Shown: positions 30,371-58,467, counted from the stretch's first letter. The stretch: DNA of 64,000 nt from an uncultured Pseudomonadota bacterium (GCA_963781145.1 CAWADW010000005.1:504423-568422); one strand, 5' to 3'. The notes: generated from the sequence alone by a model not told the origin. A program made the numbers and translations.

Positions 30371-30400
30371 GTAGGGGGCGATTTTCCAATCGCCCCCTAC
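30371..30400. repeat. REP-like palindromic element, family A (GTAGGGGGCGATT-TTCC-AATCGCCCCCTAC), copy 1
   Basis: Perfect 13-bp inverted arms in an intergenic position. Confidence 0.7.
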
Positions 30401-30408
30401 AGAGCGTA

Positions 30409-30966
30409 TTAGAGCGGCAGCGTACTCCATGTGAGCGCTCGAGGCGTAATGCTCTCTGGGCATAACAGTTCGATCGTCCGCGTTTCAAATGCGTGCAAGA
30501 GCACGACCGTGCTCGCACCACTTTGCGCGCCGCGGTCCGACGCGATGCTCGCCGAAAGCAAGAACGAAACCTCGACGCCCCTTTGGTTGCTGACCTTTGC
30601 GCGGATGATGGGACTTCCCACGAAATCCTTTGTGACGACGACTGGCCCGATCGTGACGCCCACGCCCAACGGGTAGGCACGCGCATCGACAAACTCCGGA
30701 GTTTCCGTTCGCGCCCGAACGAGAAAGTCGTGGAGCAACGCTTCGCGGCGCTGCAGCACCGCGTAGCGAATGCACCGAGAGATAGCCGCGCTTGAGTTGC
30801 GCCGACCCACCTTTCGCCGCTTTCTCTTGTAGCCAGGCAGGGACGGAGTGGGAGCGGCCTGGGTGTTCTCTGCGAATCCCGGCGCGCCGGAAATACCGTC
30901 GCAGACTTTTTGAGGTGATGGAAACGCAAGGGCGGCGAGAAGCGGAAGAATCACCAAAGGCATCAA
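30409..30966 (-). CDS. hypothetical secreted protein (weak call)
   Basis: Signal-like N-terminus MMPLVILPLLAALAFP. Overlapping alternative ORFs exist in this GC-rich region. Confidence 0.3.
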   Translation of the reverse strand: MMPLVILPLLAALAFPSPQKVCDGISGAPGFAENTQAAPTPSLPGYKRKRRKVGRRNSSAAISRCIRYAVLQRREALLHDFLVRARTETPEFVDARAYPLGVGVTIGPVVVTKDFVGSPIIRAKVSNQRGVEVSFLLSASIASDRGAQSGASTVVLLHAFETRTIELLCPESITPRALTWSTLPL

Positions 30967-31005
30967 GGCCTCTATCCCGCATCAGCTTGTGGAGTCAAGG
31001 GCGGC

Positions 31006-31034
31006 TTGACAGACGGTCAGAGCCTCAGTATAAT
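31006..31034 (+). promoter_or_regulatory. sigma70-type consensus promoter TTGACA-N17-TATAAT upstream of the GntR gene
   Basis: Exact consensus hexamers with 17-bp spacing. Confidence 0.55.
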
Positions 31035-31054
31035 TGTCTTAAAACATTAAGACA
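31035..31054 (+). promoter_or_regulatory. palindromic operator candidate TGTCTTAA-AACA-TTAAGACA spanning the predicted transcription start site
   Basis: 8-bp perfect inverted arms immediately downstream of the -10 element. Likely a GntR autoregulation site. Confidence 0.45.
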
Positions 31055-31138
31055 ATAGGACAACAACCAACGGCCACACGATTTCACCTCAACGACTCAA
31101 GCGGCATACCGGTCTACCTGCAGTTAAGGGAGCAAATC

Positions 31139-31441
31139 TTGCACGCCATCTCAAGCGGCCTACTGCATCCGGGCGACCAGCTGCCGACGGTTCGCGAAGT
31201 AGCCATTGACCTGTCCATTAATCCCAACACCGTGAATCGGGCGTACGCGGAGCTCGAGCGCGACGGCACCCTGACCAGTCGTCGAGGAAAGGGCACCTTT
31301 ATCGCAGAGCCCACTGCCAGCAGTGCGCCAAAGCGAGACCGGCTCGTGGACATCGGGCGGCGCGCGCTGGCCGAGTGCCGGATGTTCGGGTTCACGACGG
31401 ACGATTTGCTCAGCGCAATAAAACGCTTAAAGGAGGTCTGA
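31139..31441 (+). CDS. GntR family transcriptional regulator (short, HTH only)
   Basis: LPTVREVAIDLSINPNTVNRAYAELERDG HTH. The in-frame upstream sequence (from 31043) encodes a conserved helix 1 (SGIPVYLQLREQI), so the true start is probably upstream of the TTG at 31139. Confidence 0.8.
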   Translation: MHAISSGLLHPGDQLPTVREVAIDLSINPNTVNRAYAELERDGTLTSRRGKGTFIAEPTASSAPKRDRLVDIGRRALAECRMFGFTTDDLLSAIKRLKEV

Positions 31442-31585
31442 CAAACCCATGCCGACTGTCACCGATCGCAAACCCCACCGAGTGGACCCTCTGGCGCCGT
31501 CATCGCCGGCGGTCAGTCCGTTCACTTCGGCAATGCGATCTCGTGGCTGCTCGCGTTCCTGCTCTTCATCGCCGGCGTCTGGCTC

Positions 31586-32459
31586 TTGGCGTCAACGGGA
31601 TCGATTATTTATGCCATTGTTGGGATCATTTTGGCCTTGCTTTCGCTCGCGTCGATTCAAGTCGCCAAAGCGTGGGAGAAGGCAATCGTGCTGCGGCTCG
31701 GTCGATTCCATCGCCTCGCCGGCCCAGGCATCTTCTTCATCATTCCGGCGTTCGACGCCGTTGCGTCGTGGATCGATCAACGCGTGCAGACGAGCACCTT
31801 CGTCGCCGAGCAAACGCTGACCAAAGATACCGTTCCGGTGGACGTCGACGCCGTGCTTTTCTGGGTCGTTTGGGACGCCAAGAAAGCCGCCTTGGAAGTG
31901 GCATCGTATCGCGATGCAATCGGTTGGGCCTCCCAAACAGCGCTGCGCGACATTATCGGCACCACGTTTCTCGCCGACTTGCTCTCCAATCGCCAGGCAA
32001 TTGACAGCAACCTTCAACAAGCAATCGATGGCCGCACGACTCCATGGGGCATAACGGTACAGTCGGTTGAGATTCGCGACATCAAGATTCCTGAGAACTT
32101 GCAAGACGCGATGTCGCGCCAGGCCCAGGCGGAGCGCGAGCGCCAGGCTCGCGTCGATTTTGGGCGATGCCGAGCGGCAAATCGCGGAATCCTTCCTCGA
32201 GGCCGCGAAGTCATACGCCGGGAATCCAGTCGCGCTTCATCTGCGCGCCATGAACATGCTCTACGAAGGACTCAAGGAAAGAGGAGCGATGATCATCGTG
32301 CCGAGTACGGCGGTCGAAACAATGGGGCTAGGCACGATCACTGGATTAGCTTCGCTGGGGACGGCGCAAGGCATCGCTTCACCCCTGTCCGGCGCGAGCG
32401 CCCCAGGCGGGGCTGACGCCGGCGCAGCTAACACCTCATCCACTACTGGAGGGTCGTAA
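31586..32459 (+). pseudogene. SPFH/band-7 (stomatin-like) protein, disrupted by a +1 frameshift near 32156
   Basis: The N-terminal frame gives ...KAIVLRLGRFHRLAGPGIFFIIP...QAQAERERQARV. The C-terminus continues in frame 32067..32459 (ILGDAERQIAESFLEAAKSYAGNPVALHLRAMNMLYEGLKE...). There is one extra G after ...CGCGTC. Confidence 0.75.
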
Positions 32460-33173
32460 ATGTTTCTTGTTGCAGTCGTTGTTGCGCCGCTGTGAGCGCT
32501 GCAGGGTCTTCCGGAGGCCGGGTACTCCGCCCGATGGCACGTACAATTATTCGATCACGCAAGCCGGCGCCCGATCGGAACGAGCACAGTCACGATCAAG
32601 AGAAGTCCTGACAATATCTCGCTCCACGAAACCGAGACGCTCGGACAGTTGAGCTACGTCGTAGACGAAACACTCGATACAAATACGCTGAATCCAAAAA
32701 CATACGTCGCAACCTATACCAAGGGGACCGGATCGCAAACCGCGCGCGTTGCGTTTGACCGACACGGGTGCGACCGTCACTTTTGATGGCGTTGCAGGCA
32801 ACGAATTTTTCGCTTTCCCGGCAGGCAACAAGAATGCGTACGTCCTCGAGTCGTCAATCATGACGGGTTTTCTCATGCTCCCAGCCCAGCTCCACGCGAG
32901 CAGGGCGAACCAATTCCTCCAAGTCATGCCGAGTGAGGTTGCCCGCCTCACCGGCCGCGTGAGCGGGCAACCGCTGGCCCGCGACCGGCTGGCCTGCCCT
33001 CAAATGACGTGTCCCTCTCGATCGGCGGGCGAGTCAGTTTCGACGAATGGTACGATCCCAATACGTACGTCTTGCACGCGGTTTCCGTGCCCATCGAAGA
33101 CGTGCTCATCCAAGCTAACAAAATAGCCCATCGGGGTCAAGGGTATGGCCGCTACATTGGTTCTGCAGGTTGA
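32460..33173 (+). pseudogene. degraded secreted-protein gene (signal peptide + beta-rich domain) with at least 4 frameshifts; lower GC
   Basis: GGAGGG-N6-ATG start encoding MFLVAVVVAPL followed by a stop. Protein-like segments then alternate between three frames (PIGTSTVTIKRSPDNISLHETETLGQLSYVVDE..., TDTGATVTFDGVAGNEFFAFPAGNKNAYVLESS..., VSLSIGGRVSFDEWYDPNTYVLHAVSVPIEDVLIQANKIAHRGQGYGRYIGSAG*). Confidence 0.35.
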
Positions 33174-33204
33174 CGCGTTAGCACTCTCGATGCTATAGTG
33201 CTAA
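33170..33204 (+). promoter_or_regulatory. heat-shock promoter: TTGACG-N18-TATAGT overlapped by a CIRCE inverted repeat TTAGCACTC-N9-TAGTGCTAA
   Basis: Matches the CIRCE consensus TTAGCACTC-N9-GAGTGCTAA at 17/18 positions. The -10 element lies inside the element, 175 bp upstream of htrA. Confidence 0.7.
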
Positions 33205-33378
33205 GGTAGCATGGATTTCGGTTCCCGACCGCATCTCGGGACATAGGGGCGGCCAGGCCAGCCCCGGCAACAATTCCGTCTATCGATCAGGTAGAAATTT
33301 TAGGCGGTCGTTCTCGCCATGGCCCTCGTGCGGGACTTCCGCGCCTTTAAGCAAGTTCATAGGAGTAGAGTAAACAAG

Positions 33379-34587
33379 ATGAGTTCGCAAACCCGCACGT
33401 CGCTCGGCTTCCTTCTTATAGGAGTGCTCGGCGTGCTCATCGGTGCAGTCGTGATCACCCTTCTCGCCCCCAAATTCTGGCCCGCGCAACAGGCGTCGCT
33501 CAGCTCGAATGTCGCGTCGGCAGAGCCCCTTGCGCCCATCGGTACGGACAATCTCGAACAGCGCATCATTAAAGTCGTCAAGCAGAGCGAGCCCTCGGTC
33601 GTGTTGATCAAGACCACCGTGCACGGGGTCCAGCAAATTTACAACCCCTTCCAAAATGATCCGTTCTTCCGCCAGTTTTTTGGCGACCAAGGCCCCCAAA
33701 GCCAATCATTTACCGTCCAAGCGTCTGGGTCTGGGTTCGTGATCAAGCGCGAAGGCGACACAGCGTACGTGGCGACCAATGCCCACGTCGTTTATCATGC
33801 GGACAAAGTCCAAGTCTTGCTCTCAACCGGGCGCCAAGTCGACGCCGAGGTCGTGGGATCGGACGATGACGCGGACCTCGCGATTTTGAAGATTCGCGGT
33901 TCGAACTTACCATCCGCGCTGCCGCTTGGTAATTCCAGCGCTTTGCAGCAGGGCCAATTCGTGCTCGCGATTGGTGAACCGGAATCATTTCAGAACTCGG
34001 TGAGTTTGGGAATCGTTTCTGCGATCCACCGCAGCGGCATCGACGCCGGCGGTGGTGCGGGCTTCCCGACGTTCCACTACAGCGACATGATCCAAATTAC
34101 GACGCCGATTAACCCGGGCAACTCCGGTGGACCGCTCATCACAACCGGCGGCCAAGTGGTCGGCATTAATGCAGTCGTCGCCGAAGAGGCGCAGGCGATC
34201 GGGTTCTCGATTCCGATCAACGCTGCCGCGCCGGTGCTGGCGGAAATCGAAACGACCGGACATGGCATTCACGTGCAGCACCCGTTCATCGGCATTCAGA
34301 TGCGCGCACTCAATACGCAGATCGCCAACTACCTAGGTTACAATGGAGCGCAGGGCGTCGTCGTCACGGACGTCGTCGCGCAGAGCCCGGCCGACAAAGC
34401 CGGCCTGCAAGCCAGCGACATCATTTTGGAACTCAATCACCAAAAGGTCGCAAGCGCGGATCAAATCCGCAATGCCATTGCCAAGATGAAGGTGGGAGAC
34501 AAAATCACCTTGCTGGTCTGGAGAAATGGCAGCCTGCAGCCCGTCAACGTCACCCTGGGTGACCGGCCCGAGACAGTCCAAGGCTAA
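33379..34587 (+). CDS. htrA: HtrA/DegP family serine protease (S1C, trypsin-like domain + PDZ)
   Basis: N-terminal transmembrane/signal segment, TNAHVV (His), D, GNSGGPL (Ser) and a C-terminal PDZ domain. Start at MSSQTRTSLGF, preceded by AGGAG. Confidence 0.85.
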   Translation: MSSQTRTSLGFLLIGVLGVLIGAVVITLLAPKFWPAQQASLSSNVASAEPLAPIGTDNLEQRIIKVVKQSEPSVVLIKTTVHGVQQIYNPFQNDPFFRQFFGDQGPQSQSFTVQASGSGFVIKREGDTAYVATNAHVVYHADKVQVLLSTGRQVDAEVVGSDDDADLAILKIRGSNLPSALPLGNSSALQQGQFVLAIGEPESFQNSVSLGIVSAIHRSGIDAGGGAGFPTFHYSDMIQITTPINPGNSGGPLITTGGQVVGINAVVAEEAQAIGFSIPINAAAPVLAEIETTGHGIHVQHPFIGIQMRALNTQIANYLGYNGAQGVVVTDVVAQSPADKAGLQASDIILELNHQKVASADQIRNAIAKMKVGDKITLLVWRNGSLQPVNVTLGDRPETVQG

Positions 34588-34599
34588 GACGATCCCGCC

Positions 34600-34628
34600 A
34601 AGGGGCGATTTTCCAATCGCCCCCTACA
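34600..34628. repeat. REP-like element, family A, copy 2 (between htrA and dnaK)
   Basis: AAGGGGCGATTTTCCAATCGCCCCCTACA. Confidence 0.65.
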
Positions 34629-34724
34629 AACAGGTGGCCCGGGGGTCCCGGCCACTGCCAATAGAAGCACATCAGGCCGGGATACACGATATGCCCGGCC
34701 TGGTCATCAGAGGAGTAAACAAAA

Positions 34725-36588
34725 ATGGCTAAAGTTGTCGGCATTGACCTCGGGACGACCAATTCGGTTGTCGCCTACATGGAAGGCGCGACGCCAACGG
34801 TCATCACGAACGCAGAGGGAAGCCGGCTCACCCCATCCGTTGTTGCGTTCACGAAGAGCGGCGAGCGGCTCGTTGGCCAACTCGCGAAGCGGCAAGCGAT
34901 CACCAATCCCGATCGCACGATTTCGTCGATCAAGCGCTATATGGGGACCGACCACAAGGTGACAATCGACGGCAAAGCCTACACGCCGCAAGAAATTTCT
35001 GCGATGATTCTCCAGAAGCTCGCCGCAGATGCGAGTACCTACCTTGGTGAAAAAGTCACACGAGCCGTGATCACGGTGCCCGCGTACTTCAATGATGCGC
35101 AGCGCCAAGCCACGAAGGATGCCGGCCGCATCGCAGGCCTCGACGTCCTGCGCATCATCAACGAGCCGACGGCTGCCGCGCTCGCGTACGGCCTGGACAA
35201 AAAGGGCAATGAAACGATTTTGGTCTGGGATCTCGGCGGCGGAACCTTCGACGTTTCCATCCTGGAAGTTGGCGACGGTGTTTTCGAAGTTAAATCCACC
35301 AACGGCGACACGCATCTCGGTGGTGACGACTATGACAAGCGCATCGTCGATTGGCTCGTGACCGAATTCAAGAAAGATCAAGCTATCGATCTTGCCAACG
35401 ATCGCCAAGCGTTGCAGCGCCTTACCGAAGCCGCTGAGAAAGCAAAAATCGAACTCTCGTCTATGGTGCAGACCTCCATCAATTTGCCCTTCATCACGGC
35501 AGATCAGAATGGACCGAAGCATCTGGACTATACGCTGACGCGCGCTAAATTCGAACAATTGACGGCGGATCTCACGGAGCGCTGCATCAAACCTTTCGAA
35601 AACGCGATTCGCGATGCCAAACTGTCAGTCGAGGACATAAAAGAGGTCGTCTTGGTCGGCGGTGCAACGCGCATGCCCGTGGTTGTGGAACTGGTCAAGC
35701 GCCTCACCAAGAAAGATCCAAACCAAAGCGTCAATCCCGACGAAGTGGTGGCGGTGGGTGCTGCCATTCAGGCCGGCGTACTCGCAGGCGAAGTCAAAGA
35801 CGTTGTCCTGCTCGACGTTACGCCGCTCACGCTCGGACTTGAGACCCTCGGCGGCGTTCGCACGCCGCTCATCGAGCGCAATACGACGATCCCAACGCGC
35901 AAGTCGCAGACCTTTACCACGGCGGATGACGGTCAAACCTCGGTCGATATCCACGTGCTCCAGGGCGAGCGCGACATGGCGGCCGACAATAAGACGCTCG
36001 GGTCGGTTCAGACTCGAGGGCATTCCCCCGGCACCGCGCGGCGTACCGCAAGTCGAAGTGACGTTCGATATCGACGCGAACGGCATCACGCACGTTGCCG
36101 CGAAAGATCTCGGAACCGGCAAAGAGCAGCGCATCACCATCACGGCATCAAGCAACCTCAACAAAGATGAGGTCGATCGCATGGTCAAAGACGCGCAATC
36201 CCATGCTGATGAGGACAAGCGCAAGCGTGCTGAAGCAGAGATCCGCAACCAGGCGCAAACCCTCGAGTATTCGGTCGAAAGGACGCTCAAAGATCTCGGC
36301 GACAAAGTGCCGGCGTCTGACAAAGCTGACGTCGAGAAAGCGCTCGATAACGTCCGCGCGCTGCTCAAGAGCGGCAGCTCGGACGAACTCAAGCGTGCTG
36401 CCGATCGCCTGCAAGAACTCTCGTATAAGCTCGCGCAAAACGTCTATCAAAGCACGGGGCAGTCGGCCGGTGACGGGCAGCCCAATGGCGCTGCCGGCGA
36501 GCCGCAAGGAGCGCCGAGCGGCGCGACCAGCTCCGGTGGCTCGGGTCCGCAAGGCGATGTCATCGACGCTGAGTATAAAGAAACATAA
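34725..36588 (+). pseudogene. dnaK: molecular chaperone DnaK, interrupted by a single-base insertion near 36003 (probably a sequence error)
   Basis: Full DnaK N-terminus ([17 protein letters not shown]...) runs to ...ADNKTLG. The C-terminus ([28 protein letters not shown]...EYKET*) is in the +1 frame. An extra T follows CTCGGG. Confidence 0.9.
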
Positions 36589-36605
36589 AGGCGCGAGACT
36601 GACGC

Positions 36606-37169
36606 ATGGCTGGTAGCGACGAGTTCGACTCGCTCTCGAGCGCAGCAGTTCCCGGAATCGATGAGGCGCCGGCCGATGGCCAGGCGCCTGTCGATCCGGC
36701 GAGCTCGCTGCGCGCGCAGCTCGACCGGGCCAAAGCAGAGGTGGAAGAACAGCGCAACCTGTACTTGCGCGCTCTTGCCGACTTCGAAAACTTCAAGCGA
36801 AGAACAGAGCGAGAGAGCCTCGCGCGATCCGATAGCGCTCGGCGCAAACTGCTGCTGCGCGTGCTTGACGTCTTGGATAACTTCGAGCGCGCCGCGTCCT
36901 ATCGACAGGCCGGAACGCCTCCCGATCAACTGGTGGATGGCGTCCTCGCGACGGTCAAGCAACTGGGGTCGTTGCTCGACGCCGAAGGCGTGCGGCCAAT
37001 CGAGGTTGCGGGCAAACCTTTTAACCCAACCATTTCAGAAGCAGTGGGCACGCGTTCGCAACCCGGTAAGCCCGCGAATATCGTGCTCGATGAAGCGCGC
37101 AAGGGTTATACGATCGGGGACGACTTGCTTCGCCCCGCGCAGGTTATTGTCTCGACGGCATCCGAATGA
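36606..37169 (+). CDS. grpE: nucleotide exchange factor GrpE
   Basis: The GrpE coiled-coil and beta-domain motifs (RALADFENFKRR..., GKPFNP..., GYTIGDDLLRPAQVIV). Confidence 0.9.
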   Translation: MAGSDEFDSLSSAAVPGIDEAPADGQAPVDPASSLRAQLDRAKAEVEEQRNLYLRALADFENFKRRTERESLARSDSARRKLLLRVLDVLDNFERAASYRQAGTPPDQLVDGVLATVKQLGSLLDAEGVRPIEVAGKPFNPTISEAVGTRSQPGKPANIVLDEARKGYTIGDDLLRPAQVIVSTASE

Positions 37170-37181
37170 CGGGCCGCCACT

Positions 37182-38102
37182 ATGCCCGTACAATATAAGG
37201 ACTACTACAAGACGCTTGGCGTCCCTAAGACTGCGTCGACGAAAGAGATCAAGTCGGCGTATCGCAAGCTAGCGCGTCAATGGCATCCGGATGTCAATCC
37301 AACCAAAAAGAAAGAGGCCGAGGAGAAATTCAAAGAGATCTCTGAGGCCTACGAAGTTCTAAGCGACGCCCAAAAGCGCAAGACCTACGATTCGCTCGGC
37401 AGCGACTGGCAACAGCGCGCGAGAGACTTCCAGGGCGGCGGCGTCCGTTATGGCGCACCGCCTGGTGACGGCGGCGTTCAATTCGATTTTGGCGATCTCG
37501 GCGAAGGCGGATTTTCGGAATTCTTTCAAAGCATCTTTGGAGGGATGGGCCGTCAGGGCGGTGGCTTCACCGCACGTGCGCGCCGCAGTCGCGGCTCCGA
37601 CCTAGAGAGCGAGATCGAACTCGCTCTTCGCGATGCATACTCGGGTGGCAAGCGTCATTTGAGTTTACCGAACGGGAAATCGCTCGAAGTCCAAATACCG
37701 GCCGGCGTTCGAGACGGACAGCGCATAAGGCTTGCGGGGCAAGGCGAGCCAGGTTCCGGCGGCGGCCCAAATGGCGACCTGTTTCTTGTCGTACGGATCG
37801 CCCCGGATGCAACGTTTCGGCGTGAGGGTGACGATTTGTACGTCGAGCAACCCACTAGCGTGTACACGCTGGTGCTCGGTGGCGAGGTGACGGTGCCGAC
37901 CGTGACGGGTCGAATCAAGGTCAAAGTTCCAGCCGGTTCGCAAAACGGGCGCAAGCTGCGCATTCCCGGCAAAGGGATGCCGAAGCTGCGGGGGACCGGT
38001 CACGGCGACTTGTACGTGACGCTCGTCGCCCAGGTGCCCACAAGCCTCAGCGAGCGCGAGCGCGAACTTTTCCGCGAACTCGCCGACCTCAACAAATCAT
38101 AG
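37182..38102 (+). CDS. cbpA: J-domain co-chaperone, DnaJ class II / CbpA-like (no zinc-finger domain)
   Basis: J domain with HPD ([13 protein letters not shown]), a Gly-rich linker and DnaJ C-terminal domains. No CxxCxGxG repeats. Confidence 0.8.
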
Positions 38103-38166
38103 CTCAAGGGCGCGCCCGAAACAGAAACGAACCTTAGCGATGAACATCAGGAGGGAGCATTATAAC

Positions 38167-39321
38167 ATGCTCGCACCAGAGCGCAGTCCCGAAGTCATCG
38201 AAGCCGAGAAAATGGTCCTGGACACCGTGCGGCAGCTCGTGCAGGAAAAAGTTGCCCCGCGGGCTGCAGCGATCGATGCAACAGGCGAGTATCCACGCGA
38301 CATCCGAGAGTTGTTCGCCAAGAACGACCTGCTGGGCATCCCCTTTCCTGAGGAGTATGGAGGCCTGGGCAGCTTCCTCACCTACGTCAAAGTCGTTGAG
38401 GAAGTTTCAAAGGCCTGCGCCACCAGCGCGCTCATCATCGCAGTGCAAGAGTTGGGCGCCCTCCCGATCATGATTGCTGGAAGCGCCGAACAAAAAACGA
38501 AATATCTCCCGAAACTCGCTAGCGGCGAAATAATGACGTCGTACGCGTTGAGTGAATCGACGTCAGGATCGGATGCCGCCAACATGCGAACGACTGCGGT
38601 GCGCGATGGCGATTCGTACGTGTTGAACGGGACCAAAGTGTTCATCACCAATGTAGCGGTCGCCGATCTTTGCATCGTTTTTGCCGCTACCGATCCGTCG
38701 GCTGGACCGAAGGGCATTTCTGCGTTCATCTGCCACACCGACGATCCGGGCTTTCGTTTGGGCAAGGTCGAGCACAAAATGGGTATACGGGGATCGCCGA
38801 CCAACGAGGTCGTGCTCGAGGGTTGTCGCATACCCGCCGACCGCTTGCTCGGAAGCGAAGGCGAAGGGTTCAAGATTGCCATGGCAACCTTGGATAAGTC
38901 GCGACCAGGCATCGCAGCGCAAGCGCTCGGGTTGGCACAAGGTGCGCTCGATTTTGCGGGGCGCTATCTTCAAGAGCGAGTTGCCTTCGGCAAACCACTC
39001 GCGAAGCAGCAAGGCCTGCAATGGATGATTGCGGACATGGACCTCGAGACGCAAGCGGCGCGCCTGCTGCTCTACGAGTCAGCACACCGATGCGATATCG
39101 GCGCCGAAGATGTCACCTACTGGGGTGCGCTGTGCAAACTCAAGTGTGGCGACGTGGCCATGCGCGTGACGACCGACGCTGTGCAGTTGCTCGGCGGATA
39201 CGGATACATGACCGAGTATCCAGTAGAACGCATGATGCGCGACGCAAAGATCACGCAGATCTACGAGGGCACGCAACAGATCCAGCGAATCGTCATTGCT
39301 CGCAAGATTCTCGGTAAATAA
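38167..39321 (+). CDS. acyl-CoA dehydrogenase
   Basis: ACAD N/M/C domains with the C-terminal YEGTQQIQRIVIAR. Start at MLAPERSPEV, preceded by CAGGAGGGA. Confidence 0.85.
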   Translation: MLAPERSPEVIEAEKMVLDTVRQLVQEKVAPRAAAIDATGEYPRDIRELFAKNDLLGIPFPEEYGGLGSFLTYVKVVEEVSKACATSALIIAVQELGALPIMIAGSAEQKTKYLPKLASGEIMTSYALSESTSGSDAANMRTTAVRDGDSYVLNGTKVFITNVAVADLCIVFAATDPSAGPKGISAFICHTDDPGFRLGKVEHKMGIRGSPTNEVVLEGCRIPADRLLGSEGEGFKIAMATLDKSRPGIAAQALGLAQGALDFAGRYLQERVAFGKPLAKQQGLQWMIADMDLETQAARLLLYESAHRCDIGAEDVTYWGALCKLKCGDVAMRVTTDAVQLLGGYGYMTEYPVERMMRDAKITQIYEGTQQIQRIVIARKILGK

Positions 39322-39336
39322 GGGGTCGAAAGCATC

Positions 39337-41620
39337 TTGGCAATCGCACATACTCTTGGATTTCCCCGCATAGGCCACAAGCGAGAGCTCAAGCGCGCTC
39401 TCGAATCTTATTGGAAAGGCGACATCGGCGCAGACGATCTCAAAGCGGTGGGGCGCCAGCTCCGTAGCCGCCATTGGCAGCTGCAGCGTGATGCCGGCTT
39501 GGACAACGTTGCTGTCGGTGATTTTTCGTTTTACGACCAGATGCTCGACACGAGCGCCATGGTCGGCGCGATCCCCGCGCGTTACGGTTTCTCCGGCGAA
39601 ACCGTCGATTTCGATACATATTTTGCGATGGCACGTGGCTCAGCCGCATCGCCTGCCATGGAAATGACCAAATGGTTCGATACGAACTACCACTATATCG
39701 TTCCCGAGTTTACCCCAGAGATGTCCTTCGCGCTCCGCAGCGCAAAGATGATCGCCCAAACGCGCGAGGCGATCGACGCCGGCTTTGTCCCCAAGCCCGT
39801 GCTCATCGGTCCAGTTACCTATCTGTGGCTTGGCAAAGAGCGCGCGACAAATGGCAAGCCATTCTCGCGCTTGTCGCTTCTCGAGCGCCTGCTCCCCGTG
39901 TACCAAGAAGTGCTGCGGCAGTTGAAAGGCCTTGGCGTTCGCTTGGTTCAGATGGACGAGCCTGCGCTGGTCGCGGACTTGCCCGCTCCCTGGCAACAAG
40001 CGTATCAGAGCGCGTACGAGGTGCTTGGTGCAGCTTCGGTAGACATCTTGCTCGCCACGTACTTCGGTGCCGTTGACGAGCACATCACTTTACTTGGGTC
40101 GCTGCCGGTGGCGGGCATCCATCTGGATCTCGTGCGTTCACCCGAACAACTCGATGCTGTGCTCGGAAGCTGGCGGCCGGGCAGGTCCCTCTCGCTCGGC
40201 GTTGTTGATGGACGCAATGTCTGGCGCACCGATCTTCGGCGCGCGCTCACGCTGCTCGAACGCGCACACGACGTTGTCGACGATGTTTGGGTTGGACCGT
40301 CCTGCAGCCTTATGCACGCCCCGGTCGATCTTACCCTCGAGTCGAAACTCGATGTCGAACTGCGTTCTTGGCTTGCCTTCGCTGTGCAAAAGCTGCACGA
40401 GCTCGCGATCCTCAAACGCGGCGTCGAGCACGGCAGCGAAGCGATCGAAGACGAGCTGCAACTATCGGATATCGTGCAACGCAGCCGCGAACAATCCAAA
40501 CTTATTCACAACAAAGCTGTCGCCGAGCGGGTCGCGCATCTGACCCAAGACGACGAGCGGCGACGCGAGCGATTTTCGGACTCGGCAGCGGCGGCAGCGC
40601 GAACAGCTCAACCTGCCTGCTTTTCCCACGACCACTATCGGAAGCTTCCCACAGACGCCGGCAATTCGCGAAGCGCGAGCCAAGTTCAAGAAAACCGAAC
40701 TTGACGAGAAAGCCTACGAGAAGGCGATGCAAGCGGAGATCGAGCACGCGATTCGCGAGCAGGAAAAACTTGGCATTGACGTCCTCGTTCACGGCGAAGC
40801 TGAACGCAACGACATGGTAGAGTACTTCGGAGAGCAGCTGTCAGGCTTTGCCTTCACGCAACACGGCTGGGTGCAAAGCTATGGTTCGCGCTATGTCAAG
40901 CCGCCGATCATCTACGGGGATGTCGAACGACCGACGCCGATGACCGTTCGCTGGATCGAGTACGCCCAATCCCTGACCGACAAGCCGATGAAGGGGATGC
41001 TCACTGGACCTGTGACTATTTTGCAGTGGTCTTTTGTGCGCGACGATCAGCCCCGTTCGGAAACCGCCACGCAAATCGCTCTGGCCATCCGGGACGAGGT
41101 TCGCGATCTCGAGCACGCCGGCATCCGCATCATTCAAATCGACGAGCCCGCGTTTCGTGAAGGCTTGCCGCTCAAACGCAAAGACTGGAAATCGTACATC
41201 GAATGGGCATCGCGCGTGTTTCGGATTGCCTCCTCGCCGGTGGACGACGCTACTCAGATCCACACCCATATGTGCTACTCGGAGTTTAACGATGTCTTCG
41301 AGGTTTTGGCACTGCTTGACGCCGACGTCATTACGATCGAATCGTCGCGCAGCGGCATGGAGTTGCTCGACGCATTCAAGAAGTTTCGTTATCCAAACGA
41401 AATTGGTCCAGGCGTATACGACATCCACTCGCCGCGCATCCCGAGCTCCGAAGAAATGCACGCTCTCTTAGAGAAGGCCGCAAACTTCCTTTCGCCCGAT
41501 CAACTCTGGGTCAATCCGGATTGTGGTTTGAAGACGCGGCGCTGGGAAGAGGTTTTGCCTGCCTTGCGCAACATGGTCGCCGCGGCGAAGCGCATGCGCG
41601 GAAAAGTTGCGGCGGTTTAA
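39337..41620 (+). pseudogene. metE: cobalamin-independent methionine synthase MetE, frameshifted near 40600 (probably a sequence error)
   Basis: The N-terminal Meth_synt_1 domain runs to ...DSAAAAAR. The C-terminal domain ([19 protein letters not shown]...[13 protein letters not shown]...) is in another frame (ORF 40727..41620). The lesion is one extra base, or 2 missing, within a GCGCG run. Confidence 0.9.
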
Positions 41621-42156
41621 GGTCGCGGGCGGGGCTCCTCGAAGAGCATTCTCGCCTGAAACGTAAAACCGGGCAAGGCCGGATCTCGAATTTCGTCGCC
41701 GCGGGCAAACGTTTGCCCGCCGTTTTTCCGCCGCGCAGTCACCGTTTGCAAATCTGTGTCGACGAGAAACACGACGGTCGTTCCAGCAGCCAGATAGGCG
41801 CGGACCTTCTCCTCAATGTCTTTAACCGCGTCCCCAGATGATAGGATTTCGACGACCACATCGGGCGCAACGCGAGGAATGTCGGCGTCTGTCGCATTCT
41901 CATACGGTATTCGCCCGTAGGAAAGGTATGCAACGTCCGGGACGAGCGGACGGCGCGCTTGGCCCGGTGGTTGGATGCGAAATTCCCACTCGGTGCCGAC
42001 TCGACCCGAACCTTGTCGGTTCGCCCAGTCGAGAAGCCTGCTGACAAAAACGCTTTGCGCCAGCGCGTGCTTGCGCTGCGGACTCACCTTTTGCAGTGCG
42101 CGTCCGTTGACCCATTCTGTCGCGGGCTTGGTTTCCGGCAAAACGATCTCAAACAT
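41617..42156 (-). CDS. Uma2 family endonuclease (DUF820, restriction-endonuclease-like fold)
   Basis: About 180 aa with conserved acidic/Lys residues (..PDVAY.., ..DVVVEILS..). Confidence 0.7.
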
Positions 42157-42201
42157 GGCACTCAGATTATATCACGCGAATGCGCTTGGCGGCTAGCAGG
42201 T

Positions 42202-42226
42202 CACGCGCGAATAAAATTCGCGCGTG
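42202..42226. repeat. REP-like element, family B variant (CACGCGCGAATAAAATTCGCGCGTG)
   Basis: Palindrome related to CGCGCGAAT-TTA-TTCGCGCG, abutting two family-A copies. Confidence 0.55.
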
Positions 42227-42252
42227 GGGCGATTTTCCAATCGCCCCCTACA
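42224..42252. repeat. REP-like element, family A, copy 3
   Basis: GTGGGGCGATTTTCCAATCGCCCCCTACA. Confidence 0.7.
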
Positions 42253-42257
42253 TGATC

Positions 42258-44237: not shown

Positions 44238-44250
44238 GCGCCGCGCTTAT

Positions 44251-45747: not shown

Positions 45748-47178
45748 TTAGACGCTGGGATTTGTGAGGGCGATCTGGCGCTTCAGGTAGCGCAGGGCTG
45801 CTTGCAGCTGAGTATCTTTGCCAGTGACGCCGACGTCTCTGTAGTCCATCGGCACTACGATGTTAGGCTCGATGCCCTTTTTATTGATGTCGCGGCCGTC
45901 CGGCGTCACGTACCGCTGGGTCGTGACTTTGATTGCGCTGCCCCCCGGCAAGTCATAGATCGTCTGCACGACTCCCTTGCCAAAGGTCTTGACACCCACG
46001 AGAATCCCAATCTTTGAATCCTGGATCGCGCCGGCAGTGATCTCAGAAGCGCTGGCCGAGTATTGATTCACGAGAACGACCAGCGGGTGTGGCGGAATCG
46101 CATCTTGGTTGGCGTCATCCGTTTCCACATGCCCGTCGCGGTCGATCCGCGAAACAATTGGTCCATCCGCGATGAATTTCGACGAGATGTCCACCGCGGC
46201 ATCAAGTAGTCCTCCGCCGTTGTCGCGCAGATCCAAGACAAAGGCTTTGGCGCCTTGCTTCAGTAGCCGATCGAGCGCGTCGGTCACTTCTTGCGCCGAG
46301 TGTTCACCGAAATCGTAGAGTTGAATGTATCCGACGTTCCCGTCAATCATGTGTGACGTCATGGACGGCACTTCGATCACTTCGCGCTCGATCGCATAGT
46401 CGCGAACGTCATTCTTGCCGCGGAGAATCGTCATGTGCACCGTTGATCCCGCTTTGCCACGGATCAGGTTCATCACGAGATCGAGGTCGATGCCCTTTGT
46501 TGCTTTGCCGTCGACCGACACGATCACGTCGCCCCGCTTTAACCCTGCGCGAGCAGCCGGGGTGCCGTCAATGGGTTGGATGACGTTGACTTCGTGCGTC
46601 TTTGGATCTTTGCCGATGTACACGCCAATGCCGCCGAAATCGCCCCCTTGAATGAATTCCGAGAGTGACGTCTTGTCGCGCGGGCTCAAGAACACCGTGT
46701 ACGGATCGCGCAGCGAATCGAGCGCGCCCTCGATCGCAACGTACGTCAAATCTTGGGAGCCGGCTTGCTTGCCATAGTTGTGCAACGCCGTGGAGAGCAG
46801 GGTGTTGGCGTCTGCGTCAACTTGAGCCCCAGATGCCGAGGCGGTGATTGCCGGCAGGCTCAAGGTTCCGTTGATGTGCTTGGTCTTGAGGAACTCGAGC
46901 AAGCCTTTTCGCTCGCCACTGAGGAGCTGCGATTCATCAATGGGCTTGTAGTACACGTCGCGGACCTTATCCAGCGACATGTCGAGCATATCGAGGTCTT
47001 TTTGCTCGTCATTTCCTGCGCCCTCGCTGCCGTCAAAAGCTATGTTGCCGAGATCCCAGGCCAAAACTGCGCGCCGTTCACCCAACCGCTCGCGCAGCGG
47101 CGCGGCGTGCTGAAGCGCAAGGGTGGCTACGACCAGCGCGGCCGCAAGGGTGAAGAGAAGGAGGGCTTTACGAACCAC
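45748..47178 (-). CDS. S41 family C-terminal processing peptidase, paralog 2
   Basis: Same architecture (GTPAARAGLKRGDVIVSVDG; SASASEITAGAIQDSKIGILVGVKTFGKGVVQTI). Confidence 0.85.
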   Translation of the reverse strand: MVRKALLLFTLAAALVVATLALQHAAPLRERLGERRAVLAWDLGNIAFDGSEGAGNDEQKDLDMLDMSLDKVRDVYYKPIDESQLLSGERKGLLEFLKTKHINGTLSLPAITASASGAQVDADANTLLSTALHNYGKQAGSQDLTYVAIEGALDSLRDPYTVFLSPRDKTSLSEFIQGGDFGGIGVYIGKDPKTHEVNVIQPIDGTPAARAGLKRGDVIVSVDGKATKGIDLDLVMNLIRGKAGSTVHMTILRGKNDVRDYAIEREVIEVPSMTSHMIDGNVGYIQLYDFGEHSAQEVTDALDRLLKQGAKAFVLDLRDNGGGLLDAAVDISSKFIADGPIVSRIDRDGHVETDDANQDAIPPHPLVVLVNQYSASASEITAGAIQDSKIGILVGVKTFGKGVVQTIYDLPGGSAIKVTTQRYVTPDGRDINKKGIEPNIVVPMDYRDVGVTGKDTQLQAALRYLKRQIALTNPSV

Positions 47179-47282: not shown

Positions 47283-48569
47283 TTACAAGCGAGTGAGGGG
47301 GTTCACCGGTACGCCGTTCACCCGAATTTCAAAATGTAAGTGTGGTCCCGTAGCGTAGCCCGTGGCCCCGACGGCCCCGATAACCTGGCCCCGCTGAATA
47401 TGCTGATTGACCGATACGTACATTGCCGAGCAGTGAGCATAAAGCGTCGATAGTCCCGATCCGTGGTCTAGAATGATGGCATTGCCGTATCCGCCGTACC
47501 AACTTGCGTACAGGACGACGCCGTCGGCGGCTGCTTGAATCGGCGTGCCATAGTCGGCACCGATATCGATGCCCGAATGGAGCGCGTAGCGCCCGGTAAT
47601 TGGATCCACCCGCATGCCGAAAGGCGAGGTGATCGGACCTCGCACAGGCCACGCAAAGACGACCGGACCGAATTCCGAACAGACGGGCGGAGCCAGACCC
47701 GCCGCCATCGCAGCCATCCGACGAGCTTGGCAAGCCTCGTATCGGGCGCGCAGCGTGACCGCCTCGTCCTCGCGCTGTTTTTCTTGGATCAACGCCTGGA
47801 GCCGGGCCTCCTCCGCAGCGCTCAACCCTTCAAGCTCGTACACCTGTTGGGCGATGATCGAGCGCTGACTTGACGCAATAGCAAGCAAGGAGCGTCGCTG
47901 GTCGGCGAGTTGGCCAAGCTCCTGCTTGCGTGCAAGCTCGTCTTCTTGCTCTCGCACCAACGCTGCTTGCGTGCTCTCCAAGCCGAGCACGATCGTTTCG
48001 TAACGCGCTTGCTCGGAGTTCACCGTCGCGATGAGCCGCGAGTCGGAACGCAAAATAGCGCGGATGAAATCCCAGCGTTCGATAAAGTCGACGAATGAGG
48101 TCGCACTCAAAAGCACGTCGAGGTACGATGTTGCGCTCCCGTATTCATACACGTCAACAATCCGGTGATTGAGCGCATCGCGATGGCGGTCGAGACTGGC
48201 TTGCGCGGCTGCAAGTTGGCGTTTGCGAATAGCCAAGCGCAGTTGCGTCTGTGTAATGGCGCTGCCAAGCGCACCCAAATCGCCGCGCACCCGAATAATG
48301 CTGTACTGCACGGATTCGAGTTGTTGCGAGATCGTCTGCTCTTTGAAGCGCGCGACGTGGAGTTTGAGACGGCTCTCGTGCAGCTTACGCTGCGTTGCCT
48401 CGAGCAGCGCTTTCTTTTCTTGAATCTTTTCGCTGATCGGCACCGGGGTCGCGGCCAGCGCGACCGGTGCGAATGCGCTTGCAAATGGCTGGACACTAAG
48501 GATGACAACCGCGAGGACAACAAGACGTAGTCGCGCGAATTTATTCGCGCGTGCGCGCTGGATGTTCAA
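47283..48569 (-). CDS. M23 family metallopeptidase with N-terminal coiled coil (EnvC-like murein hydrolase activator)
   Basis: Signal peptide, long coiled-coil region and a C-terminal LytM/M23 domain (HSGIDIGADYGTPI...GPHLHFE). TTG start overlaps the ftsX stop. Confidence 0.8.
   Translation of the reverse strand: MNIQRARANKFARLRLVVLAVVILSVQPFASAFAPVALAATPVPISEKIQEKKALLEATQRKLHESRLKLHVARFKEQTISQQLESVQYSIIRVRGDLGALGSAITQTQLRLAIRKRQLAAAQASLDRHRDALNHRIVDVYEYGSATSYLDVLLSATSFVDFIERWDFIRAILRSDSRLIATVNSEQARYETIVLGLESTQAALVREQEDELARKQELGQLADQRRSLLAIASSQRSIIAQQVYELEGLSAAEEARLQALIQEKQREDEAVTLRARYEACQARRMAAMAAGLAPPVCSEFGPVVFAWPVRGPITSPFGMRVDPITGRYALHSGIDIGADYGTPIQAAADGVVLYASWYGGYGNAIILDHGSGLSTLYAHCSAMYVSVNQHIQRGQVIGAVGATGYATGPHLHFEIRVNGVPVNPLTRL
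48526..48550. repeat. REP-like element, family B (GTAGTCGCGCGAATTTATTCGCGCG), located inside the N-terminal coding region of the M23 gene
   Basis: Exact family-B sequence. It encodes RARANKFARL of the signal-peptide n-region. Confidence 0.6.
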
Positions 48570-51398: not shown

Positions 51399-51423
51399 GT
51401 AGTCGCGCGAATTTATTCGCGCG
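51399..51423. repeat. REP-like element, family B (GTAGTCGCGCGAATTTATTCGCGCG)
   Basis: Intergenic, immediately after the ACAD stop codon. Confidence 0.65.
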
Positions 51424-51446
51424 TTCATTCTACTCCGATTTAGCGG

Positions 51447-55700: not shown

Positions 55701-56123
55701 CGAGTTGACGGCATAGAGGTCGCCCGTCACCGTCTTACTCACGACGCTCGCAGTTGCAGTGGTCGTAACGTGGCCGATGGTCTTGATGGATTGCCGCATG
55801 TGGATATCTGCGGAGGCTGTTTGGTCAGCCGTAACTGTGATGCCGTAGATGGTTGCGGTGTCGTAACCGTCTTTGCTCCCAGTTATGCTGTAGGTGTCCG
55901 GAGAGAGGTTGAGGATCGAATAGAAACCATTCGACCCGGTCGTTGAACTTTGCGATTGGCTGGGTGACGAAGCCGTCACCTTAGTGCCAGTTAGTGGGTT
56001 GCCATTTTGATCCGTCACCTTGCCCTGAATGTTGCCAGTCGTGCCGGCCAGTGCCCATGTTCCCTGGACGAGCAAAACCGCGACCGTCAGAAGCGCGGTG
56101 CGGAGTAGGCCCTTAGTGGTCAT
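52712..56123 (-). pseudogene. TonB-dependent receptor with N-terminal carboxypeptidase-regulatory-like domain, split by at least 3 frameshifts
   Basis: Strong RBS AAGGAGG + ATG at 56123. Signal peptide, a CarboxypepD_reg-like segment (GNIQGKVTDQNGNPLTGTKVTA...GFYSILNLSPDTYSITGSKDGY), plug and beta-barrel segments spread over ORFs 54657..56198, 54241..55167, 53283..54401 and 52712..53314. Confidence 0.7.
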
Positions 56124-56311
56124 CAAGGGTTTCCTCCTTAAGTGAGTGAGAATGCTTAACCGACGAACCAGCCACTGCGGTCGGCCGAGCCGATGCACGC
56201 GCCGTCGTCCCGATTAAGGTGAGTTTAAGGTTCGAACGGTGACTTCGCACACCTGCTCGCAGCGCGTCTTGCGGGACGGATAAGGGCGACAGCGGACCTA
56301 AAGGTCCGCTG

Positions 56312-57223
56312 CTACATTGCGTTAGCGGGTGTATTTTTCAGTGGCGGGCGTGGTTGGCGGAGAATCAATCGCACGAGATCCGGAATGTGCGCCGGACTCT
56401 CGGCGACTGGTACATTAACTTTTTCAAACGCTTGAACTTTTGCTTGCGCCGTGCCGCTGCTGCCACTGACGATTGCCCCCGCGTGACCCATGCGCTTGCC
56501 TTCGGGTGCAGAACGTCCACCGATGAACGCCACCGCTGGTTTTGTGAATTCTCGACGTGCAATCATCGCGGCGGCATCTTCTTCGTCGGTACCACCGATT
56601 TCGCCGACGACAACCACGGCGTGAGTCTCAGGATCTTCCTGGAAAGCCTGCAAGCAGTCAGTGAAGACGGTGCCGATGATTGGATCGCCGCCGATACCCA
56701 CGCACGTGCTCTGGCCGATGCCCGCGCGCGTCAACTGATCGACGATCTCGTACGTTAGCGTGCCACTGCGCGATACGAGCCCGACGTTGCCCGCGGAGAA
56801 CACATGGCCCGGCATAATACCCACGAGCGACTGGCCGGGCGTGACAAGGCCAGGACAATTAGGTCCGATGAGTCGAGCGTCTGGGGGTATGACAGCAACT
56901 GCTTTGAGCATGTCGTGCACTGGAATGCCTTCTGTGATGCAAACGATCAGCTTGATCCCCGCATCGGCTGCCTCTAAAATTGCATCGGCGGCGAACGGTG
57001 GTGGAACGAATATGATGCTTACCGTCGCACCGGTTTTGGCAACCGCCTCGCTCACGGTGTTAAAGACATCGAAGCCTTCTACGGTTTGGCCGCCTTTGCC
57101 GGGCGTGACGCCGCCGGCTATGTTCGTGCCGTAAGCGCGCATGCGGTTGGCGTTGTGCAAGCCCTCGCGACCGGTGATGCCTTGAACGAGGACGACGCCT
57201 GTACGGTCGAGATAGATGGACAA
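56312..57223 (-). CDS. sucD: succinate--CoA ligase subunit alpha
   Basis: CoA-binding and CoA-ligase motifs ([17 protein letters not shown], the His-phosphorylation loop GHAGAI). TTG start. Confidence 0.9.
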
Positions 57224-57242
57224 CTGCTTCCTCCTATCGGGT

Positions 57243-57268
57243 ACGCGCGAATAAATTCGCGCGACTAC
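57243..57268. repeat. REP-like element, family B (minus-strand GTAG head provides the sucC TAG stop codon)
   Basis: On the minus strand reads GTAGTCGCGCGAATTTATTCGCGCGTAC. Overlaps the sucC stop at 57265-57267. Confidence 0.65.
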
Positions 57269-58413
57269 GTTTTGGCGATGGCGACTGCGCGCGCAGCGCC
57301 GTCGTTCATCGTTTCAACTGCCGCAATGCCGGCGGCTTCCAAGACGGCTCGCCCTTCCTTTTCATTGGTGCCTGTGAGCCGCACGACCAGTCGATCCTTT
57401 TTCCATTTGCCACCGTCAAGGGCGGCAATCAAACCGCGTGCCACTTCATCACCGCGCGTAATGCCGCCAAAAATGTTGATGAACAAAGCCTTCACTCGCG
57501 GATCAGAGGTCACAATATCCACTGCGTTCCGAACGACATCGGCCTTTGCGCCGCCACCAATGTCGCAGAAATCGGTCGCTTCGCCGCCCGCAGCTCGCAC
57601 CGCGTCCATCGTCCCCATGACAAGTCCGGCCCCGTTTCCGATCACGCCAACGCTTTCGTTCCCTTTGCCGCTTAGGTAAGCGTAGTTGAGATTGGTCTGC
57701 CGAGCGCGCTGTTCGAGCACGTGGTCTGGCAAGTCGGTTCGCCATGCCTCGAGTTCCGGGTGACGAATCAAACCGTTGTCGTCAATGTCGACCTTCGCAT
57801 CCGAGGCGACGAGCTTCCCGTCTTTGGTGATGGCGAGCGGATTGATTTCGAGCAGCATCGCGCCGATGTCAAAGAACAGCGCGTACAGCTTACCGAGAAT
57901 CCCGACGAATTGGTTGGCGATCTCGGCTGGGATGCGGGCTTCTCGAGCGACGCGCCGCCCGATGAACGGCCAATACCCACCCGCAGGATTGATGCAGTAC
58001 TTCGCGATCGCAGAGGGATTCGTGGCGGCGACTTCCTCGATGTCCATGCCTCCCATGGCCGAGGCGATGATAATGGGGCGCTTGCTCGCGCGATCGACCG
58101 TTATGGATAGGTACAGCTCGCGTTCAATGTCCATTCGCTGCTCAATCAGGATGCGTTTGGCAACCTCGCCCTTGATATTCATGCCGAGGATGGCTTGAGC
58201 CGGTTCGCGGACGTCGTCCGCGCTCGTGCAGAACTTGATCCCGCCTGCCTTGCCTCGTCCGCCGACGAGCACTTGCGCTTTCACCACGGAGGGCGCCGGA
58301 TTCTCACGCATGATCTGCACGGCTTCCTCTACCGAAGACGCGACGCGACCACGCGGCACGGGAATGCCCGCTTTGGCAAATAGTTCTTTCCCTTGGTATT
58401 CAAGTAGACGCAT
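57265..58413 (-). CDS. sucC: succinate--CoA ligase (ADP-forming) subunit beta
   Basis: Start MRLLEYQGKELFAKAGIPVP, preceded by GGAGAG. ATP-grasp and CoA-ligase domains. C-terminus ...AIAKT*. Confidence 0.9.
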   Translation of the reverse strand: MRLLEYQGKELFAKAGIPVPRGRVASSVEEAVQIMRENPAPSVVKAQVLVGGRGKAGGIKFCTSADDVREPAQAILGMNIKGEVAKRILIEQRMDIERELYLSITVDRASKRPIIIASAMGGMDIEEVAATNPSAIAKYCINPAGGYWPFIGRRVAREARIPAEIANQFVGILGKLYALFFDIGAMLLEINPLAITKDGKLVASDAKVDIDDNGLIRHPELEAWRTDLPDHVLEQRARQTNLNYAYLSGKGNESVGVIGNGAGLVMGTMDAVRAAGGEATDFCDIGGGAKADVVRNAVDIVTSDPRVKALFINIFGGITRGDEVARGLIAALDGGKWKKDRLVVRLTGTNEKEGRAVLEAAGIAAVETMNDGAARAVAIAKT

Positions 58414-58435
58414 GACGCTCTCCGGTTGATGGGCG

Positions 58436-58467
58436 CTGTGCGGGCGATTTTCCAATCGCCCTCTACA
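58436..58467. repeat. REP-like element, family A, degenerate copy 5
   Basis: GTGCGGGCGATTTTCCAATCGCCCTCTACAT. Confidence 0.55.

Follow-up and report, generated by a model that had tools for sequence, protein, structure and literature searches.

Repetitive extragenic palindromic (REP) sequences, taken here as stem-loops of 20-40 nt in which at least 7 bp at the base of the stem are fully paired and 2-5 nt form the loop, can be partnered by a REP-associated tyrosine transposase (RAYT, or TnpA_REP), and a RAYT gene flanked by its REPs is called a REPtron (PMC6006769). The REPtrons of Stenotrophomonas maltophilia and Marinomonas sp. MWYL1 (Corneloup et al. 2021, PMC8266576) combine a short perfect stem with a conserved small loop, have GTAG immediately before the 5' foot of the hairpin, end on the 3' side in CA or CT, which is their cut site, and include one RAYT flanked by its REPs. 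In Escherichia coli, the REPs and the bacterial interspersed mosaic elements (BIMEs) that they form are GTAG-tagged extragenic hairpins, and the single-copy HUH-Y1 nuclease TnpA_REP (RayT/YafM, structure 4ER8) shows the same REPtron layout (PMC3479197, PMC3333891). The GTAG super-family (Di Nocera et al. 2013, PMC3733652; single-unit families GTAG-14, GTAG-16 and GTAG-24) is characterized by a GTAG terminus, several families per genome, unidirectional or convergent placement, head-to-tail (HT) tandems, and a TAG that often serves as a stop codon. All of these features recur in the element described here, a small hairpin that we call family A and that occurs five times in a 64,000-nucleotide stretch of DNA from an uncultured bacterium (CAWADW010000005.1:504423-568422; the window). 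We are confident that all five are members of a GTAG-type REP family of an uncultured, most likely Eremiobacterota, lineage that possesses a RAYT-partnered REPtron.

When we searched the window with a 24-nt hairpin pattern allowing up to 3 mismatches, five matches were obtained (30374, 34601, 42225, 42259, and 58440), all of them on the plus strand, while the same pattern gave zero matches across 100 dinucleotide-preserving shuffles. All five copies contain an exact 18-nt core, GGCGATTTTCCAATCGCC, which is absent from the minus strand, against a chance expectation of 0.15 matches. On the plus strand the copies follow the plan GGGGCGATT-TTCC-AATCGCCCC-CTACA, with a stem of 9 bp (8 bp in copy 5) and a loop of 4 nt. 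The TTCC loop and the CTACA tail are present in 5/5 copies, and GTAG, which is the tail read on the minus strand, lies 0-1 nt from the hairpin foot in each of them, within the 0-2 nt allowed for the GTAG or GTGG tetranucleotide of a REP. Copy 1 carries GTAG before the stem as well as CTAC after it, which is known as the 'double-foot' form (PMC6006769). Both strands of the element fold as DNA into a hairpin (-11.1 and -10.6 kcal/mol) with z of about -5 (z = -5.3 for -11.1), and an Rfam search of the window returned no match. The flanking genes identified by Pfam encode RNase J, an HtrA-like protease, DnaK, acetyl-CoA synthetase and SucC, and copy 5 is placed between the stop codon of an acyl-CoA dehydrogenase gene (58483) and the likely start of sucC (~58412). 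The first-pass annotation of this DNA had reported the five co-oriented copies, their loop and tail and the neighbouring genes, and all of these were reproduced, its coordinates being accurate to within 1-6 nt. Its description of the copies as always intergenic holds in general, with the qualification that the CTA of copy 4 is complementary to the acs stop codon. Arms of 9-13 bp had also been proposed; the lower value stands, whereas 13 bp applies to copy 1 alone, where GTAG pairs with CTAC.

Family A is not confined to the window. In species-representative genomes its 20-nt core was found in at least 51 blocks and, among the matches listed, it is abundant only in related metagenome-assembled genomes (MAGs), mostly MFD02248.bin.2.139 and Centralia_MAG_155. 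A scan of JGI metagenomes for the core followed by NCTAC matched two genomes and no others. Since positions 35744-43745 of the window are 90.4% identical to a block of MFD02248.bin.2.139, the window represents a sister species of that genome; the proteins of the window lie on an NCBI/ENA contig of 1,325,926 bp. A census was made in Ga0185299 (2.8 Mb in eight contigs, 97.5% identical to the sister MAG), which contains 70 exact-core copies at 66 sites, 62 of them singletons and 4 direct arrays. On the GTAG strand, the census copies start abruptly with T (84%), followed by GTAG (93-96% per position), G (90%), an invariant 20-mer, and a closing C (91%); this is followed by A (61%) or T (27%), and positions outside the unit are random. 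The family-A unit is 28 nt long and reads T-GTAG-G-GGGCGATT-GGAA-AATCGCCC-C-(A/T) on this strand. A discrete 28-mer of this kind in unrelated flanks points to dispersal by insertion and not by segmental duplication. Characterized TnpA_REP enzymes cut at a CA/CT dinucleotide (PMC8266576), and by analogy the CA/CT at the 3' edge of the unit may correspond to the enzyme cut site. The tag belongs to the lineage: with a pattern that ignores it, CTAC was present in 48/55 lineage copies, compared with 1/12 identical hairpins in other phyla. The suggestion of a REP family carrying the GTAG/CTAC tag is thereby borne out, and with 70 copies in a 2.8-Mb relative the family is genome-wide and not a local duplication.

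The 12 matches in other phyla are of a different nature, mostly ordinary terminator-type hairpins, several with T-runs. It is plausible that the 20-mer identity arose by chance, because a hairpin 20-mer has only ~12 free positions. The 20-mers at L001:747, L016:777, L018:5171, and L030:5275 (Chitinophagaceae, Zetaproteobacteria, Verrucomicrobiota, and Anaerolineae), each followed by a T-run, are intrinsic terminators identical by chance, so exact 20-mer hairpin matches across phyla need not mean homology. Separately, Verrucomicrobiota MAGs (L008:1302, L019:2178, L029:1512, and L050:3424) contain the identical 20-nt hairpin inside ~70 nt of conserved context, GAATGAGCCG..ACTTCAAGGAG-hairpin-..CGAATTAA..GGTCCCGC, without the CTAC tag. 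An Rfam search at this look-alike hairpin gave no match, and the context may represent a structured RNA that has not been described, or else a conserved 3' end.

A search for a RAYT gene flanked by inverted copies had been proposed with the first description of the repeats, and five related genomes proved to have such a gene, flanked by family A itself; one of the five is represented by a contig of the window's species. In a six-frame search of the DNA regions analysed for the HUH and YxxxNP motifs, one open reading frame (ORF) matched, in the Centralia relative (L048). Its product scored 99.4 bits against NF047646 (REP_Tyr_transpos) and the four further orthologues 99.7-104.7 bits (cut-off 80), while all five fell below the cut-off of the IS200 transposase family NF033573 (20-28 bits vs 55). 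The five loci, which encode proteins of 151-153 aa, are L048/L057 (L057 being a JGI Centralia contig), L052 from the sister MAG, the short metagenome contigs L053 and L058, and L059. We assigned L059 to the window's species because the same sample holds a contig 99.4% identical to the window and because L059, at 89.7% identity, diverges from the sister as the window does. The RAYT of L059 is uncalled in the public assembly, where a 68-aa ORF on the opposite strand is called instead; RAYTs are therefore under-annotated in these MAGs.

The arrangement of the five loci is the same throughout. GTAG-hairpin copies lie upstream and family-A hairpin-CTAC copies downstream of the RAYT gene in 5/5 loci, which is the REPtron layout with inverted copies, and the nearest 3' copy always overlaps the RAYT stop codon. 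In L048, three family-C GTAG-hairpin units are found 5' of the gene, and three family-A units plus a fourth with a TGCC loop are found 3' of it. All five genes are located between the same amine-oxidase-like and DsbH/YyaL-like genes across 73-90% DNA identity. The RAYT gene is single-copy, with one homologue per large contig in a protein search (matches to E 1e-10), and in the sister genome it is ~450 kb from the region homologous to the window. In the PDB the protein has a single relative, TnpA_REP of E. coli (E = 6.7e-8 to 4ER8). Its HUH motif (PDHLHLL) is conserved, and in RYILANP the residues Y126 and N130 align with Y115 and N119 of 4ER8, respectively; the roles of HUH, the catalytic tyrosine, and the asparagine of YxxxN are those given in PMC6006769. 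The closest named RAYT in the protein search, from the xanthomonad Pseudomarimonas, shows 40% identity. Inverted family-A pairs in L015, L026, and L032 were also considered as RAYT flanks and rejected, the genes enclosed being sugar-kinase-like, NAD kinase, and glyoxalase-like.

Comparison with the described systems revealed several differences. First, the Stenotrophomonas and Marinomonas REPtrons differ from the present one in host phylum (here most likely Eremiobacterota), in the stem and loop sequences, and in the RAYT itself (~40% identity), and the activity of the present enzyme would be as theirs only by analogy. Second, the REPs of E. coli have imperfect palindromes that contain a bulge and form alternating BIME clusters, whereas family A has perfect stems and occurs as singletons or head-to-tail arrays; no alternating clusters were found, the arrays being, for example, A+A+, C+A+A+, B+A+, and A-A-A-A-. 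Third, Pseudomonas fluorescens SBW25 (Bertels and Rainey 2011, PMC3116915) likewise has a single-copy, vertically inherited RAYT with cognate palindromic repeats, but its REPINs are inverted REP doublets forming a long hairpin. Such doublets were found at 0/66 family-A sites, and the nearest inverted pairs lie 0.6-1.7 kb apart around ordinary genes. Fourth, elements of the insertion sequence (IS) group IS200/IS605 (IS608, ISDra2) share a Y1 HUH enzyme (the match to NF033573 is weak and below its cut-off), subterminal hairpins that have a guide tetranucleotide on their 5' side, chemistry that is specific for one strand and acts on single-stranded DNA, and an expected orientation bias. Here, in contrast, the transposase gene is single-copy, syntenic, and does not move with the hairpins, and only 28-nt units, not IS ends, are dispersed. 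Finally, the stem and loop of family A and its host do not appear in the catalogue of Di Nocera et al., as far as its text shows (PMC3733652). The proposal that this is not a described REP family holds for the sequence itself but not for the type, since GTAG-tagged perfect palindromes in single units and head-to-tail arrays are fully described. Family A is a bona fide REP family that is partnered by a RAYT and belongs to the perfect-palindrome, single-unit type; for its lineage, the literature searched contains no report of RAYTs.

The occupancy or copy number of family A differs among the window, the sister species (L060, the sister MAG, also L046), and a strain of the sister species (L061), which are related as (window, (L060, L061)) with identities of 90.5% and 97.5%; the family turns over. 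On the 3' side of acs the window has B-A-A and the sister has B-B-A, a family-B unit occupying the position of copy 3. On the 5' side of rnj the window has one family-C and one family-A unit, compared with C and three A units at a 28-nt period in both L060 and L061. The htrA-dnaK site is filled in the window and L061 and empty in L060, which by parsimony suggests a recent loss in L060. At this one empty site, the idea that GTAG served as a pre-existing target, such as a stop codon, for hairpin insertion does not fit, as the L060 gap spans GTAG plus 5-9 extra bases on each side. As a separate feature of the same spacer, two GC-rich hairpins follow copy 2 (34634-34658 and 34676-34702) and are kept in 3/3 genomes, including the REP-less strain; a terminator or a structure in a heat-shock leader are possible identities.

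Based on these observations, we suggest that family A is a non-autonomous element whose partner would be the single-copy, syntenic RAYT, an HUH-Y1 nuclease of 151-153 aa encoded elsewhere on the chromosome. By analogy with TnpA_REP of E. coli, Stenotrophomonas, and Marinomonas, the enzyme would bind the folded hairpin and its GTAG guide on single-stranded DNA, cut at CA/CT at the edge of the unit, and then rejoin the ends, whereby copies would spread, duplicate head-to-tail, and be removed. Most copies would be transcribed as stable 3' hairpins because they are sited just downstream of genes, and some supply a gene's stop codon through the TAG of GTAG, as for acs.

Several points weigh against this interpretation. 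With ~70 exact copies per genome, the family is smaller than classical REP families (>100 per family). The RAYT gene lies outside the window, and for the window's species it is known from contig L059 only, where the gene caller missed it. The case for mobilization by the RAYT is built on association and on what has been published about other REPtrons (PMC3479197, PMC8266576). In the loci read, families B and D were never found adjoining a RAYT gene, which would be only a putative partner for them. Finally, the loss in L060 comprises ~39 nt, which is longer than the 28-nt unit, and clean CA/CT ends are absent from it. Turnover is therefore evident while clean enzymatic excision is not; this loss may be an ordinary hairpin-stimulated deletion and not RAYT excision.

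The first-pass annotation had held that the copies keep one chromosomal orientation regardless of gene direction, and had taken this uniformity as an argument against strand-specific RNA terminators and for a DNA-level role. Neither the premise nor this argument against an RNA-level element survives the larger sample, in which orientation tracks the flanking genes. On the 2.05-Mb contig of the sister, oriented as the window, all families together occupy 32 plus and 16 minus sites, family A occupies 15 plus and 7 minus sites, and the Ga0185299 census gives ~49 plus vs 21 minus for family A. Gene contexts were taken from rough gene calls with a codon-usage filter, and the context counts carry some error. 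In the family-A census, copies between two minus-strand genes are mostly plus (18 vs 4) and those between two plus-strand genes mostly minus (8 vs 3; Fisher p = 0.005), and the GTAG-hairpin lies on the mRNA-sense strand at 25 sites and is reversed at 7 (binomial p = 0.002). There is no fixed chromosomal orientation, but a bias of ~3-4 to 1 relative to neighbouring genes. In the window, 3/4 sites lie between minus-strand genes and follow this rule, the htrA-dnaK copy being the exception, and the uniformity of the window arises because of these three sites plus the one exception; four independent sites would share one orientation by chance 1 time in 8. As for placement, 59 copies of a first sample are co-directional, 22 convergent, and 5 divergent. 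Among 26 copies between co-directional genes with GTAG on the sense strand, 7 abut the upstream stop codon, which is the TAG of the tag. In 15/66 copies an ORF of 100 or more codons ends at the tag's TAG, compared with 2 and 9 in the other frames, and acs in the window is one such case.

One possible source of this bias is replication. The GTAG strand would insert on the lagging-strand template, as in IS200/IS605, and the link to genes would reflect the co-orientation of genes with replication. The sense strand of co-oriented genes is the lagging-strand template, so the IS608 model predicts the observed bias (PMC6006769). The plus orientation dominates the sister contig from 0.48 to 1.9 Mb (32 vs 16), a stretch that is minus-gene-rich to ~1.6 Mb, and in a first, incomplete sample plus copies still predominated between plus-strand genes (7 vs 3). 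In the full census, however, copies between plus-strand gene pairs on minus-dominated contigs were mostly minus (6 vs 3, which are small numbers), and local gene direction predicts orientation better than the region does. The GC/AT skew, computed for the window and for the sister contig in 26 blocks (|GC skew| <0.03), is too weak to place the origin or terminus and to establish the direction of replication, and no clean switch of orientation was seen. A joint orientation map projecting the Ga0185299 contigs on the sister contig was not relied on, as colinearity is unproven beyond the anchors and the strains differ in filled sites. We regard replication as a doubtful source of the bias, although one to be taken seriously. 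Transcription, RNA selection, and replication are all candidate sources, and the few informative copies (6 vs 3) lean towards local gene direction.

A more far-reaching version of the REPtron reading, which we put forward only tentatively and consider rather unlikely in full, is that the single 28-nt REP and not a doublet is what proliferates, that one RAYT serves families A and C and perhaps B and D, which would have in common only the TGTAG tag, the stem length, and a 4-nt loop, and that insertion is directed by gene direction, through the exposed non-template strand or TAG stops, and not by replication. If true, gene-directed insertion of single units would be a natural system separating transcription-coupled from replication-coupled single-strand transposition.

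It is also conceivable that the hairpins are mainly host RNA elements under selection, acting as a stabilizer in the 3' untranslated region or as a processing or translation-coupling signal, the RAYT link being incidental to their spread. Such a role would suit the position of 81/102 classified copies downstream of a gene (co-directional or convergent) and the gene-relative orientation (25 antisense vs 7 sense sites, p = 0.002). It would also suit the favoured strand, which has a GNRA-type GGAA loop and forms an RNA hairpin 2 kcal/mol stabler than the other (-17.4 vs -15.4), and the compensatory changes that keep family-B stems paired; the literature further argues that REPs are transcribed (PMC3733652). 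On the other hand, no T/U run of an intrinsic terminator follows any copy, the stem being followed by CTACA and random sequence, and in a terminator scan of 30000-44500 no family-A copy was among the terminator-like sites. The unpaired TGTAG is kept at >90% with no obvious RNA use, yet it is a known TnpA_REP guide, one copy in four or five has the disfavoured orientation, and RNA function alone leaves the RAYT flanking in five genomes unexplained. As the main account of the family, this appears improbable to us, although an RNA role and spread by the RAYT are not mutually exclusive. Any RNA-level effect of the copies would be a putative one.

We consider it very improbable that the copies exist mainly as DNA binding sites for gyrase, IHF, or nucleoid or segregation factors. 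This idea draws only on analogy with the E. coli REP/BIME sequences, for which binding of gyrase, IHF, and Pol I is cited in PMC3733652 and PMC6006769, and nothing in the sequence data points to it; moreover, the arrays are head-to-tail and not in the alternating BIME layout used by gyrase and IHF, and four stems with one tag fit recognition of structure and tag, not a sequence-specific duplex binder. That the copies are a local duplication or assembly artefact of the window is scarcely credible; the assembly does contain single-base errors, such as the dnaK frameshift, but the element is present in independent ENA, NCBI, JGI, and Logan assemblies of at least 5 species-level lineages and the flanks of its copies are unrelated.

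Three further hairpin families, B, C, and D, share the plan of family A, namely a stem of 8-9 bp, a 4-nt loop, and a CTAC tail, and co-occur with it in the window and in the genomes of relatives (Table 1). Together, the families B-D of the window are represented on both strands. Family C forms the 5' flank of the RAYT gene in the Centralia relative. Variants of the family-B stem in relatives preserve pairing through compensatory changes (CGCGCG, CTCGCG, and GTCGCG arms).

Table 1. Coordinates of the repeats and associated genes (window positions unless a contig is named).
Feature	Position	Strand	Remarks
Family-A copy 1	30371-30401	+	'Double-foot', GTAG-GGGGCGATT-TTCC-AATCGCCCC-CTACA; upstream of rnj, directly after the family-C REP
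Family-A copy 2	34602-34628	+	htrA-dnaK spacer; sole window copy with hairpin-CTACA on the mRNA-sense strand
Family-A copy 3	42226-42252	+	Leading member of head-to-tail pair, 34-nt period
Family-A copy 4	42260-42286	+	Second of pair; CTA at 42282-42284 complements the acs TAG stop
Family-A copy 5	58442-58467	+	8-bp stem, TCTACA tail
RAYT ORF (Centralia relative)	L048:3015-3470	-	151 aa; NCBIfam NF047646 and Pfam Y1_Tnp
RAYT ORF (window's species)	L059:5853-6311	-	Intact, 153 aa, 91% identical to that of the sister
acs	42282-44237	-	TAG stop formed within copy 4
Family-C REP, GGGCGACTTGACACTCGCCC-GCTAC	30341-30365	+	Adjoins copy 1
Family-B-like hairpin, CGCGCGAATAAAATTCGCGCG	42204-42224	+	Without CTAC tag; fused to the A-A pair (copies 3 and 4)
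Family-B REP, CGCGCGAATAAATTCGCGCG-ACTAC	48527-48551	-	Hairpin scan
Family-B REP	51399-51423	-	Hairpin scan
Family-B REP	57244-57268	+	Hairpin scan
Family-D REP, CAGCGGACC-TAAA-GGTCCGCTG-CTACA	56290-56315	+	Family recurs in relatives

The related assemblies CAVTNB01 (MFD02248.bin.2.139) and JAJPHJ01 (Centralia_MAG_155) are labelled 'proteobacterium' and 'Proteobacteria bacterium'. Because the named homologues of a neighbouring gene are all from Candidatus Eremiobacterota (55-62% identity), the public phylum label is probably wrong, and the host lineage is, judging from these homologues, most likely Eremiobacterota mislabelled as a proteobacterium. With this lineage, an uncultured one from soil, the range of the REP/RAYT partnership is extended. 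For these MAGs, good strain-typing and synteny markers are provided by the 28-nt unit together with the three sister families, which also explain small intergenic differences among close strains. For annotation there is a warning, as repeats are needed for the RAYT ORF and for certain stop codons (acs). The 25-to-7 gene-relative bias in a singleton family also offers a small clean data set on how REPs spread.

Several other features of the window were noted. The dnaK gene (34725-36588, +) carries a single-base insertion near 35999 relative to the 620-aa gene of relatives, which results in two overlapping ORFs; the rnj ORF has 524 aa (574 aa in relatives), and the same contig has a DsbH-like gene of 456 compared with 597 aa. 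Long-read consensus errors, and not pseudogenes, are the most likely explanation of these disruptions of dnaK, rnj, and the DsbH-like gene. A gene at 11022-12086 (-) is flanked by a 20-nt sequence, CTTTTTTACACGGTCGCGAG, repeated exactly and in direct orientation at 10983-11002 and 12232-12251. Finally, the genes at 44251-45711 and 45748-47178 (-) are adjacent paralogues of 486 and 476 aa with ~75% identical stretches, representing a tandem gene duplication.

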